Part shown: piece after piece, positions 32,806 through 55,711 of the stretch
Numbering within the stretch: the stretch's first letter is position 1
Layout: every line of letters starts with the position of its first letter
Made by a program: the position numbers and the translations under genes
The notes under the pieces: model-generated
Seen by the model: the letters and a program-made list of their open reading frames with translations, nothing else
The model's database searches: none
What the model was told of the DNA's origin: nothing
Assembly: GCA_964638155.1 (NCBI GenBank)
Contig: CAZWYI010000006.1
Coordinates: 5,949-69,948 of the forward strand
Direction of reading: 5' to 3'
DNA: 64,000 nucleotides
Source of the DNA: an uncultured Thermoplasmatales archaeon
GTDB lineage: Archaea; Thermoplasmatota; E2; DHVEG-1

Positions 32806-33564
32806 ATGACCAAAACTAAACAGGCCCTTGTTAAAGAATCAAAGAAAAAAAACAAGGAAGAAAAATCAGATGAAGTTGAAGTTTACATAATGGGTAAAAG
32901 CTACAAAGTCCCAGCAGGTCTTACAATAATGAAAGCTCTTGAATATGCTGGTTATCGTTTTATCCGTAGTTGCGGTTGTCGAGCAGGTTTTTGCGGAGCT
33001 TGTTCAACAGTTTATAGAATAGAAGATGAACAAAAACTTGGTTTTGATCTGGCTTGTCAAAAAGTTGTAGAGGATCAAATGTATCTTGTTCAGCTTCCTT
33101 TTGTTCCTGGATTAAAAGCTGAATATGACATTGAAAAAATTGAACCAAGCGATACAACTCTTATAGAAATTTATCCAGAACTTGCTAGATGTGTTTCATG
33201 TAATACCTGTACAAAATCCTGTCCACAAGATATTGAAACTATGAAGTATATTCAAATGGCAGTTAGAGGTGATATCGAACGTTGCGCAGAGTTATCCTTT
33301 GACTGCATTCAATGTGGGTTATGTGCTATGAGATGCCCGGCAGACATTAAACATTATCATTTAGCTCAACTTGCCCGTAGACTACGCGGTAAATATCTTG
33401 ACTCAAAATCAAAAAATCTTGCAAAAAGATTAAAAGAAATTGACCAAAGAAAATACGATGAAGAAATTGCAAAACTAATGAAAATGCAGAAAAAAGAAAT
33501 CATTGATCTCTATAATTCAAGAAAAATAGAAGCAGAACAAGAAGAAGATGAAGGGGGCAGCTAA
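32806..33564 (+). CDS. frdB: succinate dehydrogenase/fumarate reductase iron-sulfur subunit (soluble type: 2Fe-2S + 2x[4Fe-4S])
   Basis: CGCRAGFCGAC (Cx4Cx2C plant-type 2Fe-2S), CVSCNTCTKSCP and CIQCGLCAMRCP. Start taken at the ATG at 32806, after a GGGGT RBS; the track gives 32785. Confidence 0.75.
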   Translation: MTKTKQALVKESKKKNKEEKSDEVEVYIMGKSYKVPAGLTIMKALEYAGYRFIRSCGCRAGFCGACSTVYRIEDEQKLGFDLACQKVVEDQMYLVQLPFVPGLKAEYDIEKIEPSDTTLIEIYPELARCVSCNTCTKSCPQDIETMKYIQMAVRGDIERCAELSFDCIQCGLCAMRCPADIKHYHLAQLARRLRGKYLDSKSKNLAKRLKEIDQRKYDEEIAKLMKMQKKEIIDLYNSRKIEAEQEEDEGGS

Positions 33565-33566
33565 TT

Positions 33567-53900: not shown

Positions 53901-55711
53901 CAAAGGATATACCAGAAACTGTTATGGAGGCTTCAGGAGCAGCGGCAAAAGCAAGTAGTATTATCTCTTCTGAGAGAAATAAACTAGTTGAAAAGAAAAT
54001 ATATCCTCCGGAGCGTGATGTTTCAGGTGAGGATCCTCGTATAGGTCTGTTTATTTGCCACTGTGGAATAAATATAGGTGCGTATGTCGATGTGCCAAAA
54101 GTTGTAGAATATGCAAAAAATCTTCCTAATGTAGTTTATGCTGAAGAAAATCTGTATACATGCTCTGATGATACACAAAGTAAAATTGTTGAAAAGATAA
54201 AAGAGCATAAACTGAACCGCGTTATTGTTGCCTCTTGTACTCCTCGTACTCATGAGCCGTTATTTCAGGAAACAATCCGTGAAGCTGGCCTTAATCCACA
54301 TTTGTTTGAAATGGCAAACATTCGTGATCAATGCAGTTGGGTTCATATGAAAGAACCAAAAAAGGCTACAGAAAAAGCAAAGAAACTTGTGAAAATGGCT
54401 GTAGCAAAAGCCGCTTTAATTGAGCCTTTACAGACAATTGAAATTGATGTAACTCAGAAAGCTTTGGTTATCGGCGGTGGTCTTGCAGGAATGATTTCTG
54501 CACTTGGTATTGCTGATCAAGGATTTGAAGTATTCTTAGTTGAAAAAGAAAATAAGCTAGGTGGAAACCTACGTAATTTATACTGGACTCTTGAAGAACA
54601 TGATGTACAAGAATACATGAAATCTATTATTAAAAAAGTAGAGAAACATCCAAAGATTAAATTATACAAAAACGCAAAAGTTGACAAAGTAGATGGATAT
54701 ATTGGAAACTATGAGACAACAATAAAAAATGGCTCTGCAAAACTATCCTTTAACCATGGTGTAATTGTTGTCGCAACAGGTGCAGAAGAATCAAAATCCT
54801 CTGAATATTTATATGGTAAAGATAAATGTGTAATAACACAATTAGAACTTGAAAAAAAATTAGCTGAAGATAAGAGTTTTTCTAAAAAGACCATTGCTAT
54901 GATTCAATGTGTCGGAAGTCGTGACGATCAACATCCGTATTGTAGTCGCATATGTTGTAGTGATGCAATTAAAAACGCATTGAAAATAAAAGAAAGACAC
55001 CCTGATTCACAAATATATATTCTTTATCGTGACATGAGAACATATGCTTTCAAAGAAAGCTACTATGAAAAAGCTAGGGAAAAAGGAATAATATTTGTCC
55101 GTTACAGAAAGGATAAAAAACCCGTAGTTAAAAAAGGTAAAAAAGAACTTTTAGTTAATGTTGAAGATATTATTCTTGGGGAGCAATTGATGATTCATGC
55201 GGATCAATTAGTTCTTAGCCCTGCTATTGTTCCAAGAGAAGAAAACATAAAACTTGCCCAAAAACTTAAAGTACCGCTTAATGAAGACAACTTCTTTTTA
55301 GAAGCACATGTTAAACTGAGACCAGTTGATTTTGCAACTGAAGGAATATTTCTTGCAGGTATTGCTCACTCTCCAAAATCAATAAAAGAAACAATTTCTC
55401 AATCCTATGCTGCCGCAGCTCGAGCTCTCAACATTGTTTCAAAGGATAAGTATTATACAGATGCACCAATCGCATGTGTAGATGAAGATCTTTGTAGTGG
55501 ATGCGGGGTTTGTGAAAAAATCTGTCCGTATGGTGCAATTGAGATTAATACTGAAGTAAAAGATGGAGAAGAAGTAAGACTTTCAAAAGTAATCGAAGGG
55601 GTATGTAAAGGCTGCGGGAGCTGTGTATCTGCATGCCCATCAGGTGCTATAGAACAAAAAGGTTTCAGACGTGATCAAATTATATCTATGATAGATGCAG
55701 CAGCTGAATAA
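50981..55711 (+). CDS. hdrA: 1576-aa fusion: HdrA-like FAD module with an inserted GltD/NfnB-like NAD(P)H:FAD domain and a 2x4Fe-4S region, followed by a complete HdrA
   Basis: VVGGGIGGIQAALD; the GltD/SudA signature CKDACPAGVGAPGYVALVSQGKFYQALQVIKERLPFPSICGRVCHRPCEEAC; second and third dinucleotide folds IVGGGPSGLTAAHD and VVGGGNAALD. Then the HdrA N-domain PRIGLFICHCGINIGAYVD, ALVIGGGLAGMISAL, and C-terminal CSGCGVCEKICP and CKGCGSCVSACP. Confidence 0.8.
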   Translation: MSSKSSKVGSVLVVGGGIGGIQAALDLANSGFKTYLLDQKPAIGGVMAQLDKTFPTNDCSMCIMSPKLVDVGRHPNIELITYADLVDIKGNAGNFNVKIKKRASYVDPDKCTGCGECEDACPVILDSEFDEGLDDRHAIYKMYPQAVPLNYTIDKHGVQPCKDACPAGVGAPGYVALVSQGKFYQALQVIKERLPFPSICGRVCHRPCEEACTRSDIDDPIGIAYLKRFVGDLELKIPAYQVPPVKGRAESVAIVGGGPSGLTAAHDLALKGYHVTIFEAGPVLGGMMRWGIPAFRLPKEILEREMSDILALGVKVRLNTAIGKDFSIPDLFNLGYDSVLIAVGAQVGKKMNIPGEELDGVYQAIDFLKEINLGHIITTPIATVDEDLCIGCGSCAPECVYGAIRLKKDKNNPKKKYPIIQKYICKGCGKCAKVCPSKAIKLTGVRDITPTVGKKVLVVGGGNAALDTARSAIRLGGEDVTILYRRSRIEMPAEPDWEIDETEREGVNFQYLTSPVEIISDKKGNAKAVKCIKMRLLDEIDKSGRRKIDPVPNSEFTIDADTIILAIGQEVDTGFLSRDVDLEYTPYSSIKVDSLSFTADHKGKLEYTPWSTIKIDRVTHETSIKGVFSSGDAVWGAGTIIEAIAAGKKAAVSIDRYLNGEDLKKGRETKKPVAEISTEGVKKEKMVSMRLLPLEERENNFKEVELGYSEEEAIEEARRCLNCGGCVECLECVRTCEADAINHDMKEKDINLDVGSVILAPGYELFDPKIKSEYGYGRFPNVLNSLEFERILSASGPYQGHVIRPSDKKEPKKVAWIQCVGSRDNACGNNYCSSVCCTYAIKEAVIAKEHSPDIKPTIFYMDMRTYGKGFERYYNRAEDEHGVEFIRCRVSAVEEDPKTKNLLIKYETEDGKLKTEEFDMVVLSCGLSAQENMKEISKKIGVKLNEFGFCETQEFDPIETTKKGIFVCGAFSGPKDIPETVMEASGAAAKASSIISSERNKLVEKKIYPPERDVSGEDPRIGLFICHCGINIGAYVDVPKVVEYAKNLPNVVYAEENLYTCSDDTQSKIVEKIKEHKLNRVIVASCTPRTHEPLFQETIREAGLNPHLFEMANIRDQCSWVHMKEPKKATEKAKKLVKMAVAKAALIEPLQTIEIDVTQKALVIGGGLAGMISALGIADQGFEVFLVEKENKLGGNLRNLYWTLEEHDVQEYMKSIIKKVEKHPKIKLYKNAKVDKVDGYIGNYETTIKNGSAKLSFNHGVIVVATGAEESKSSEYLYGKDKCVITQLELEKKLAEDKSFSKKTIAMIQCVGSRDDQHPYCSRICCSDAIKNALKIKERHPDSQIYILYRDMRTYAFKESYYEKAREKGIIFVRYRKDKKPVVKKGKKELLVNVEDIILGEQLMIHADQLVLSPAIVPREENIKLAQKLKVPLNEDNFFLEAHVKLRPVDFATEGIFLAGIAHSPKSIKETISQSYAAAARALNIVSKDKYYTDAPIACVDEDLCSGCGVCEKICPYGAIEINTEVKDGEEVRLSKVIEGVCKGCGSCVSACPSGAIEQKGFRRDQIISMIDAAAE

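Follow-up and report, generated by a model that had tools for sequence, protein, structure and literature searches.

In hydrogenotrophic methanogens, the group 3c-type [NiFe] hydrogenase and the heterodisulfide reductase (Hdr) of MvhADG-HdrABC reduce a diffusible heterodisulfide and the dithiol is oxidised by TfrAB, a logic by which H2 reduces fumarate on the reductive branch to 2-oxoglutarate and ferredoxin is reduced. In the bacterium Pseudoclostridium thermosuccinogenes, the co-regulated 'succinate operon', which has genes for fumarase, seven for Flx-Hdr and two for a novel fumarate reductase, was proposed to couple fumarate and ferredoxin reduction via Flx-Hdr, i.e., as a bifurcating NADH:fumarate/ferredoxin system (PMC7282089). 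The role and the high-potential acceptor of Mvh-Hdr in the many non-methanogenic archaea that have it are addressed by a cluster at positions 32806-55711 (+ strand) of the window, the stretch of 64,000 nucleotides of an uncultured Thermoplasmatales archaeon (contig CAZWYI010000006.1) analysed here. With moderate confidence we read this region as an operon-like, lineage-conserved pair of Hdr redox modules, in which module A (frdBA-korDABG-hdrA1C1B1-mvhGA-hycI-mvhD) would be a soluble, H2-dependent, Hdr-coupled fumarate reductase and module B (glcDF-lplA-hdrC2B2-hdrA2) an Hdr that is linked to NAD(P)H and connected with a D-2-hydroxyacid dehydrogenase. The two Hdr modules are embedded among genes of the C4-C5 dicarboxylate branch, namely those of fumarase, succinyl-CoA synthetase and 2-oxoglutarate synthase.

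The cluster holds 19 intact, co-directional genes in the order frdB-frdA-korD-korA-korB-korG-hdrA1-hdrC1-hdrB1-mvhG-mvhA-hycI-like protease-mvhD-glcD-glcF-lplA-hdrC2-hdrB2-hdrA2, with no gap above 20 nt in the list of open reading frames (ORFs). A first-pass annotation made from the letters alone had named these families, and its names match the Pfam and NCBIfam domain assignments. The 4-nt stop/start overlaps that it reported lie exactly at 37550, 43625 and 46005 (ATGA) and at 50103 and 50981 (GTGA). Its statement that all neighbours overlap or are separated by 10 nt or less holds at 16 of the 18 junctions and fails at protease-mvhD (20 nt) and glcD-glcF (11 nt); korG and hdrA1 overlap by 20 nt, and the remaining junctions measure 0-11 nt apart from protease-mvhD. 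By gene content, the parts list also appears compatible with flavin-based bifurcation, as had been suggested.

All parts of MvhADG-HdrABC occur in the cluster, i.e., HdrA with its FAD and Fe-S domains, HdrB, HdrC with two 4Fe-4S clusters, the hydrogenase subunits and MvhD. The hydrogenase (mvhG-mvhA-hycI-like protease-mvhD, 42615..46008; Pfam, NCBIfam, motifs) is of the Mvh/Vhu-type cytoplasmic [NiFe] kind with a maturation protease and the MvhD 2Fe-2S adaptor. MvhA carries the RICGVC and DPCFACATH motifs and a C-terminal extension; its best solved relatives are MvhA/VhuA (375 bits to the PDB entry of MvhA) and the 7t2r large subunit, which was deposited under the name 'NiFe hydrogenase large subunit'. 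The best NCBIfam matches of the Mvh proteins are VhuA, VhuG and VhuD, all below the equivalog cut-offs. HdrA1 (38073..41288, 1071 amino acids (aa)) is a fused asymmetric tandem according to its alignment to HdrA (8rvu/5odc) and a motif scan: the first half has Cys197 (DCSIC) and the inserted ferredoxin domain and lacks the N-terminal and the C-terminal ferredoxin domains, and the second half has both of these domains and lacks Cys197 and the inserted domain. It is followed by hdrC1-hdrB1 (41291..42606; Pfam, NCBIfam, motifs), and HdrB1, HdrB2 and GlcF each retain two intact CCG motifs.

The FrdB-like protein (frdB, 32806..33564; Pfam Fer2_4, Fer4) combines an SdhB/TfrB-like 2Fe-2S N-terminal domain with two CxxCxxCxxxCP motifs and has no CCG domain in Pfam; its NCBIfam matches to the TfrB/SdhB N-terminus are weak. 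It lies immediately upstream of frdA (33567..35213; Pfam FAD_binding_2) with a gap of 2 nt. FrdA has a 92-aa N-terminal extension with an HPDY motif and lacks most of the C-terminal helical domain, and neither the extension nor the short C-terminus gave a Pfam match. In the alignment to E. coli FrdA, all dicarboxylate-binding and catalytic residues are retained (H232, T244, E245, R287, H355, R390), while H44 at the covalent-FAD site is replaced by Asn. This Asn is found in 80 of 80 relatives and is invariant in an alignment of outgroup representatives, which have the HPDY motif as well. Variants of E. coli FrdA at His44 have non-covalent FAD, keep fumarate reduction and lose succinate oxidation. 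The Asn at this position therefore favours, by analogy, the reductive direction for the FrdA of the window. Two candidate identities were discarded: FrdB cannot be named a canonical SdhB, as a PDB sequence search gave only generic ferredoxin, HdrC and RnfC matches, and a membrane-anchored quinol:fumarate reductase is ruled out by the lack of a hydrophobic subunit among the cluster products, as none of the 19 contains a membrane-helix-like or hydrophobic segment.

The comparison with methanogens is close in its parts. Both have the group 3c-type hydrogenase, MvhD, HdrABC with CCG clusters and a TfrA-like flavoprotein, and judged from the genes of the window the same logic of fumarate and ferredoxin reduction by H2 would apply. 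Unlike in methanogens, the genes are clustered rather than dispersed and HdrA is a fused asymmetric tandem, not a homodimer-forming monomer. There is no CoM/CoB (coenzyme M and B) context either: in accordance with the first-pass annotation, no mcr and no CoM/CoB genes occur within the 64-kb window, and methanogenic CoM-S-S-CoB reduction, although not rejected outright, has no supporting genes there. Membership in TfrAB was rejected, since FrdB has no fused CCG domain and FrdA reaches only 324.5 bits against the cut-off of 718 of TfrA NF004900. The domains of methanogen TfrB are instead split in the window between FrdB (2Fe-2S and dicluster) and separate CCG proteins, the C-terminal part of TfrB matching GlcF (170 bits) and HdrB1/HdrC1 as separate proteins. 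FrdB and a separate CCG protein thus have together the domain content of methanogen TfrB, and therefore a thiol intermediate is possible and not required. A direct Frd-Hdr link in place of a diffusible heterodisulfide is likely.

The strongest argument for such a link comes from other phyla. Direct homologue searches with the window FrdA and GcvH returned close relatives only; the distant FrdA contexts came solely from representatives clustered at 50% identity and from a profile built on outgroup sequences. The FrdA subfamily is also present in Bathyarchaeota, Clostridia (Maledivibacter halophilus), WOR-3, marine Gammaproteobacteria and a Prochlorococcus. The same FrdBA subfamily stands beside HdrB1/C1-type genes in four of five other lineages examined, two of them also with Kor. 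A Bathyarchaeota-like locus (L126) has hdrB-frdB-frdA divergent from korDABG-hdrA::mvhD, Maledivibacter (L127) has aspartase/fumarase-frdB-frdA-hdrB-hdrC-hdrA-mvhD and a Flx-like NAD(P)H module, and two metagenome bacteria have fumarase-hdrB-hdrC-hdrA-mvhD-Flx-like-frdB-frdA-Rex-like (L128) and hdrA-Flx-like-korB-korG-hdrC-hdrB-frdB-frdA (L130). With the Thermoprofundales, L126 and L130, linkage to Kor is seen in three lineages. The identity of the L126-L130 proteins to those of the window is 54-61% for FrdA and 52-59% for FrdB. In L126, L127, L128 and L130, HdrB is 36-49% identical to HdrB1 vs 28-31% to HdrB2, HdrC is 37-45% identical to HdrC1 vs 30-38% to HdrC2, and the Frd-linked HdrA of other lineages matches HdrA1 more strongly than HdrA2.

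The gene composition and order of L128 are those described for the 'succinate operon' (PMC7282089). Its FrdA and FrdB are 54% and 53% identical to those of the window, with the HPDY extension and Asn at the covalent-His site; HdrBC of the HdrB1/C1 type, HdrA and MvhD are shared as well, and fumarase is near in both. Because of the shared FrdBA and HdrB1/C1 subfamilies and the layout of L128, module A is best read, by this analogy, as an H2-driven archaeal counterpart of the Flx-Hdr-Frd 'succinate operon'. PMC7282089 also cites a 2019 preprint by Koendjbiharie and van Kranenburg on this system. Unlike the bacterial operon, the archaeal cluster takes in electrons at the Mvh [NiFe] hydrogenase: Flx-type genes (FlxABC-like: NAD_binding_1/DHODB, Fer4_22, Fe-S) are absent from it, MvhGA stands in their position, and the only NAD(P)H site is the NfnB-like insert of HdrA2. 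It further differs by the fused asymmetric tandem HdrA, by korDABG between frd and hdr, and by a second Hdr module attached with GlcDF and LplA.

The first-pass annotation had left the physiological disulfide unknown. Module A probably needs none, as FrdBA and HdrB1/C1 subfamilies adjoin in other phyla and a related operon was proposed to be bifurcating (PMC7282089); the probable high-potential acceptor, by analogy, is fumarate and not a disulfide. Taken together with a small leader ORF discussed below, module A most likely encodes, as far as sequence can tell, a soluble, H2-dependent, Hdr-coupled fumarate reductase. In this enzyme, H2 would be oxidised by MvhAG and the electrons passed through MvhD to the FAD of the fused HdrA1. 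The high-potential branch would run over HdrC1/HdrB1 and FrdB to the non-covalent FAD of FrdA and to fumarate (+33 mV), and on the low-potential branch ferredoxin would be reduced by bifurcation. The four-subunit Kor (korD-korA-korB-korG, 35224..38092; Pfam POR_N, PFOR_II, TPP_enzyme_C, POR) consists of alpha, beta (thiamine pyrophosphate), gamma and delta (2x4Fe-4S) subunits. KorA scores above the NCBIfam PRK08659 cut-off (549.7 bits vs 411) and the best matches of beta and delta are 2-oxoglutarate enzymes; on account of these matches and the adjoining sucCD, korDABG is probably a 2-oxoglutarate:ferredoxin oxidoreductase. The genes sucD and sucC for succinyl-CoA synthetase and a TrmB/MarR-like regulator are divergent from the cluster (29414..32498, - strand, Pfam), and class I fumarate hydratase beta and alpha are convergent with it (55724..57135, - strand, Pfam and NCBIfam). 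As fumAB, sucCD and kor adjoin, reduced ferredoxin could drive the carboxylation of succinyl-CoA with CO2 to 2-oxoglutarate by a reductively working Kor, or it may feed a membrane complex. On the branch from malate to 2-oxoglutarate, exergonic fumarate reduction would then pay for endergonic 2-oxoglutarate synthesis.

The same genes could also run oxidatively, in which case Hdr1-Mvh would form H2 by confurcating electrons from succinate with those of ferredoxin reduced in 2-oxoglutarate oxidation, as part of a syntrophic breakdown of amino acids. The Thermoprofundales were predicted to be peptide degraders with an oxidative Kor (PMC6461988), and succinate oxidation coupled to H2 was proposed for the hydrogenase-HdrBC-SdhA-GcvH cluster of Culexarchaeia (PMC9723716). 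We nevertheless consider this direction unlikely: the invariant Asn at the covalent-FAD His disfavours efficient succinate oxidation if E. coli is a guide, the mean potential of reduced ferredoxin and succinate of about -230 mV is far above that of H+/H2 unless H2 is extremely low, and the bacterial homologue operates reductively (PMC7282089).

Several observations weigh against the H2-dependent fumarate reductase. FrdA is below every NCBIfam cut-off, including that of its best match TfrA mentioned above, and an L-aspartate-oxidase-like activity is a formal alternative. For FrdB, no SdhB-like protein of solved structure was matched by sequence. FrdA-like proteins with the N-terminal extension and the Asn of the subfamily occur at 43-45% identity in metagenome-assembled genomes (MAGs) of marine Gammaproteobacteria/Thiotrichales and in Prochlorococcus sp. 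MIT 1201 (P0243 and P0247 clusters), and a WOR-3 locus (L129) has frdBA alone, without Hdr. The bacterial precedent is itself only a proposal. As for the operon-like organisation, estimated gaps in relatives reach 118 nt at hdrB1-mvhG, 137 nt at hdrB2-hdrA2 and 78 nt at glcD-glcF, and the cluster may have internal promoters. As a separate observation, the Gammaproteobacteria/Thiotrichales and Prochlorococcus sp. MIT 1201 are not obvious Hdr users.

Conservation was assessed with GlcD as the query of genomes and FrdA as that of metagenomes, with the gene order of each locus determined by tblastn of the window proteins. The GlcD relatives, 66-86% identical, came from MAGs of uncultured Thermoplasmatota, among them Thermoplasmata archaeon M11B2D, a MAG of the Thermoprofundales/MBG-D (Marine Benthic Group D), and the cluster has an unchanged order in about 12 MAGs of Thermoprofundales/MBG-D-like Thermoplasmatota. 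FrdA retrieved 244 metagenome relatives, from which 80 loci at 81-89% identity, originating from estuarine, marine and saline sediments, were kept. One order, sucD(-) sucC(-) trmB-like(-) | frdB frdA korDABG hdrA1 hdrC1 hdrB1 mvhG mvhA protease, is present without exception in all 43 metagenome loci of at least 9 kb, and the rest, mvhD glcD glcF (lplA) hdrC2 hdrB2 hdrA2, holds in genome loci spanning the cluster. The sucDC genes and the TrmB-like regulator are upstream in every locus that reaches this region. Beyond sucD, the content varies by locus (an FG-GAP protein, other hdr genes, or larA-acad-aldh-fumAB-gcvH), and so do the genes after hdrA2. As the order is constant and the flanks differ, the cluster is conserved against a rearranging background, and the synteny across relatives for which the first-pass annotation had called is thus present. 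Across relatives, the median of the estimated gap ranges from -20 to +41 nt depending on the junction. Phylogenetic inertia or chance adjacency without functional coupling would fit the fact that most related loci are fairly close (66-92% protein identity). It is highly improbable given that the flanks are rearranged and the cluster is not, and that the Frd-Hdr(-Kor) linkage recurs, differently ordered, in the Bathyarchaeota-like archaeon, the Clostridium and the two unassigned bacteria from metagenomes, which already contradicts chance.

The authors of a study of Thermoprofundales stated that frdAB were not found in their MAGs (PMC6461988). The M11B2D MAG of that study carries the part of the cluster from kor to hdrA2 (L008), and two FrdA-like proteins annotated as SdhA/FrdA (P0032, P0033) are filed under the NCBI name 'Thermoplasmata archaeon M...'. 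The conserved FrdBA-like pair in related MAGs bears on this published absence. We searched the literature on MBG-D for fumarate reductase and heterodisulfide, and on lipoate ligase together with HdrABC-MvhADG, and found no description of the cluster, and an exact-sequence look-up of MvhA gave no match. For the Thermoprofundales and Bathyarchaeia, cosmopolitan sediment lineages, the cluster and the cross-phylum Frd-Hdr(-Kor) linkage provide a testable answer to the question of the acceptor, namely fumarate. We propose that a dedicated soluble FrdBA is wired to a distinct HdrBC subtype and that the reduced ferredoxin would serve 2-oxoglutarate synthesis or energy conservation, so that the bifurcating fumarate reductase proposed for bacteria would have an archaeal form whose electrons come from H2.

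The first-pass annotation had treated the 19 genes as one super-operon encoding a hub, and in its strongest form this would be a polycistronic unit yielding a single mega-complex for H2, NAD(P)H, ferredoxin, fumarate, 2-oxoacids, 2-hydroxyacids and a disulfide. The absence of gaps above 20 nt over 23 kb, the Shine-Dalgarno (SD) motifs inside preceding genes, the conserved ATGA overlap of mvhD and glcD that spans both modules, and the fact that the one promoter-like block conserved in relatives precedes the leader ORF speak for it. The modules separate in relatives, however. More distant relatives (L013, L011) have (mvhD-)glcD-glcF-lplA-hdrC2-hdrB2-hdrA2(-mvhD) without the tandem-HdrA/Hdr1 set of module A, although L013 still has, about 2 kb upstream and on the opposite strand, a diverged mvhGA pair, and L015 and L016 have hdrA1-hdrC1-hdrB1-mvhGA-protease-mvhD-glcD followed by different genes. 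In addition, lplA, which is found at the same position in 10 related loci, is missing from 4, the 3' end varies in relatives (extra mvhD, FrhB-like genes, or an LplA::DUF116 fusion), and Kor and GlcD are autonomous enzymes elsewhere. A single mega-complex is thus improbable, and the cluster is two separable modules and not one undifferentiated hub.

The sole sizeable non-coding stretch ahead of the cluster is the trmB|frdB intergenic region at 32499-32701, which was aligned over 18 relatives. It contains a kept block at 32632..32663 (+) with the pattern TTTTTGATAAT..AACAA.AAGTATTTAATA, which resembles a B recognition element and TATA box (BRE/TATA-like) and may act as a promoter element. Downstream, the alignment of relatives revealed a small leader ORF of 32 aa (32702..32800, +), open in 15 of 19 loci and 26-40 aa long in relatives, with the strongest SD sequence of the region (GGAGGA-N6-TTG in the window, GGGAGGA-N6-7-TTG kept in relatives). 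Its stop is 5 nt ahead of the frdB start in the window and -8 to +5 nt from the frdB ATG across relatives. The peptide is weakly conserved (N-terminal MxKxMA..AI, C-terminal FVG) and has no Pfam match; the ORF may serve as a regulatory leader or count as a 20th cistron. An ATGGC-N7-GCCAT inverted repeat lies inside the leader ORF in several relatives. The frdB start at 32806 given by the first-pass annotation is correct and is fixed by TTTTGTGGGG-N7-8-ATG, kept in 18 relatives; the ORF finder and the gene caller on a 100% identical contig had set it at 32785 (259 aa). The gene call on that contig provided the korD start at 35224 and agrees for frdA, which has a TTG start, while lplA most likely starts at ATG 48568 with a 1-nt overlap (TAATG) with glcF. 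SD-like matches of at least 5 nt precede 8 of the 19 starts against a background of 9% (p about 1e-4), and SD-like sequences are embedded in the 3' ends of preceding cluster genes. A T-rich tract (TCTTTTATTT) follows the hdrA2 stop. The upstream and 3' features fit one promoter and one leader cistron and are no proof of a single transcript.

Module B begins with glcD-glcF (46005..48568, +; Pfam, NCBIfam, motifs). GlcD is an FAD-linked D-2-hydroxyacid dehydrogenase whose best solved relative is LctD of the Ldh-Etf complex (7qh2_C, 260 bits), and GlcF is HdrD/TfrB-C-like with 2x4Fe-4S and two CCG motifs. The electron-confurcating LctBCD (Ldh-EtfAB) of Acetobacterium woodii is similar in its LctD and in that a LarA-type racemase is nearby; unlike it, the window has no EtfAB, and GlcD is paired with an HdrD-like CCG protein, after which comes Hdr2 and its NfnB-like NAD(P)H module. 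The LarA-family 2-hydroxyacid racemase of the window (61012..62268, -) has malate racemase as its best match, below the cut-off. A larA-glcD-glcF triple is kept in Methanococcoides, Methanosarcinaceae and a Zixibacterium (L019, L023-L028, L030-L033, L036), with larA about 1.3 kb upstream of glcD and its product 52-60% identical to the window LarA. This suggests a unit of racemase and D-2-hydroxyacid dehydrogenase/HdrD-like protein, including in methanogens, and the LarA homologue likely partners GlcDF.

The hdrC2-hdrB2 pair (49618..50984, +; NCBIfam, CCG motifs) is near the canonical CoB-CoM type, with TIGR03288 scoring 288 bits for HdrB2 vs 163 bits for HdrB1. HdrA2 (50981..55711, +, 1576 aa; Pfam, NCBIfam, motif scan) has the topology of HdrA1, with 46% identity over 862 aa, and its inserted ferredoxin domain is split by an NfnB/GltD-like FAD/NAD(P)H module of about 530 aa and an extra 2x4Fe-4S ferredoxin. 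Anaerobic methanotrophic (ANME) archaea have a fused tandem HdrA (HdrA3/4) and, in ANME-1, an NfnB-inserted HdrA (HdrA9-11) (Chadwick et al. 2022, PMC9012536). The window proteins share with them the complementary loss of Cys197 vs the N-/C-terminal domains in the two halves and, as in HdrA9-11, an NfnB-like insertion of about 500 aa interrupting the inserted ferredoxin domain (PMC9012536). They differ in that the order of the halves is reversed, with the N-domain-less Cys197 half first, that HdrA2 joins the fusion and the insertion in one protein, and that the host is no methane metaboliser. Module B would be an NAD(P)H-linked Hdr, hdrC2B2 with the NfnB-inserted HdrA2, wired to GlcDF, its genes travelling together in L011 and L013, and lipoyl-GcvH would be the best candidate for a third substrate.

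Between the two parts of module B lies lplA (48568..49617, +; Pfam LplA-B_cat, Lip_prot_lig_C), a canonical two-domain lipoate-protein ligase with PDB matches to LplA, the stop of which abuts the hdrC2 start. A second, divergent LplA (30-32% identity) is encoded after hdrA2 in L010 (19836-21398), where it is fused to a DUF116 domain (520 aa), and after hdrA2 and mvhD in L013 (20398-21309). An orphan GcvH with its lipoyl-lysine is paired with an OsmC-like thiol peroxidase (57348..58300, +; Pfam, NCBIfam) and lies 2.1 kb downstream of the cluster. It scores 135.6 against the cut-off of 117 for ordinary GcvH in NCBIfam, and no gcvT or gcvP was found beside it in the window, L013, L121-L125 or the L105-type loci. 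GcvH stands after fumAB in the window and adjoins sucD in loci of the L105 type; in L013 it is found alone, next to glcD and in divergent orientation. OsmC-GcvH comes directly after hdrC-hdrB-hdrA(NfnB)-mvhD-hdrA in L125, is close to the cluster in L121, and in L124, where the cluster is not in view, is preceded by a group 3b hydrogenase, with HdrA/MvhD genes a few kb away. In related Thermoplasmatota contigs, GcvH is found among TusA, DsrE, cysteine desulfurase, radical-SAM/BATS proteins, a ferredoxin and a GGR-like flavoprotein in L122 (615-9826), and with DsrE, TusA, MvhD and two HdrA genes in L123 (685-9078), which recalls by analogy the sHdr-LbpA/lipoate-assembly clusters of sulfur oxidisers.

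These contexts raise the alternative that Hdr and Frd of the window are coupled by a thiol/disulfide shuttle as in methanogens, where a Tfr-like enzyme reoxidises the dithiol that Mvh-Hdr has formed from a disulfide, the shuttle here being the lipoyl arm of GcvH charged by LplA. The translational abutment of lplA and hdrC2 and the second LplA after hdrA2 in L010 and L013 fit such a shuttle, as do the kept lipoyl-lysine of a GcvH that has no gcvT/gcvP adjacent in any locus, its three arrangements near the cluster and its place directly after the Hdr2 genes in L125, the company of TusA and DsrE in L122 and L123 (in L122 also of radical-SAM and GGR-like proteins), and the two CCG motifs of HdrB1, HdrB2 and GlcF. 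The GcvH, however, passes ordinary GcvH cut-offs, and the lack of gcvT/gcvP holds for its immediate neighbourhood. Besides, lplA is missing from 4 related clusters, the bacterial Frd-Hdr clusters examined have neither LplA nor GcvH, and lipoamide at about -290 mV leaves little driving force for H2-dependent bifurcation. We therefore hold the shuttle between Hdr and Frd to be doubtful, and lipoyl-GcvH is a tentative candidate, with rather low confidence, for the dithiol substrate of Hdr2. The most far-reaching version is less probable than not by a wide measure: Hdr2 would have as its dithiol/disulfide substrate the lipoyl group that the LplA of the cluster attaches to the orphan GcvH, linking NAD(P)H, ferredoxin, the D-2-hydroxyacid dehydrogenase, the OsmC peroxidase and possibly the reduction of fumarate, with 20 cistrons co-transcribed and fumarate reduction paying for 2-oxoglutarate synthesis. 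If true, the GcvH lipoyl arm would be a protein-bound 'heterodisulfide' for a non-methanogen, and in any case LplA, GcvH and Hdr2 form a compact set for asking whether protein-bound lipoate serves Hdr outside sulfur oxidisers.

Related proposals exist for other organisms. The authors of the Culexarchaeia study suggested GcvH as an Hdr partner/disulfide carrier (PMC9723716). The Ehe cluster of these non-methanogens (membrane [NiFe] hydrogenase, HdrBC, SdhA, CdhA, HdrA2B2C2, GcvH) likewise unites an SdhA/FrdA-like gene, Hdr genes, a hydrogenase and GcvH (PMC9723716). Unlike there, the hydrogenase of the window is of the soluble Mvh type and not membrane-bound group 4, CdhA and an antiporter are absent, LplA is inside the cluster, and Kor and GlcDF are present. 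In sHdr-LbpA systems of sulfur oxidation, Hdr-like genes are similarly linked to those of a lipoate-protein ligase and of a protein that resembles GcvH and has a single lipoyl domain (Cao et al. 2018, PMC6067878). Of the full sHdr set, which also comprises a small HdrA, two radical-SAM proteins and DsrE/TusA, the window has just a ligase and a GcvH-family protein. The window differs in having neither a small sHdrA nor the order hdrC1B1A-hyp-hdrC2B2, in the accessory domain of its ligase, and in its anaerobic, hydrogenase-bearing archaeal host. Membership in sHdr was rejected given HdrAs of 1071 and 1576 aa and the absence of DsrE, TusA and LipS-like genes from the window.

The divergent TrmB-like regulator with sucCD, the convergent fumAB, OsmC-GcvH and the LarA-type racemase had all been missed by the first-pass annotation. 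The fumAB genes are linked to the cluster on its other side in L105, L107, L111 and L114. A group 3b-type (sulfhydrogenase-like) [NiFe] hydrogenase operon stands beside OsmC-GcvH in L121 (340-9484), L124 (4986-9485) and L125 (10594-15078), and L121 also has a PyrK-like gene and a second HdrA of 1497 aa with an NfnB-like region; these three elements are absent between hdrA2 and fumB in the window. The tRNA and Rfam scans of the window found nothing. Beyond sucD, a 2977-aa ORF (20292-29225, +) consists mostly of FG-GAP repeats, with matches over 14 stretches, carries a hydrophobic segment at its C-terminus and is probably a giant surface protein. A block at 8223-13372 (-) encodes DUF134 and DUF5320 proteins, an Mrp/NBP35-type ATPase, two Nitro_FeMo-Co (NifB/NifX-like) proteins, an ARMT1-like phosphatase and two MinD/CbiA-type ATPases with 4Fe-4S inserts, a gene set recurrent in anaerobes. 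The first kilobases also encode a thioredoxin (7496-7867, -), a second OsmC paralogue (4340-4768, -), the hydrogenase maturation protein HypD (730-1821, -) and a radical-SAM protein with an HMPTM-type zinc ribbon (2158-3699, +), a domain name that may point to a pterin methyltransferase of methanopterin biosynthesis.

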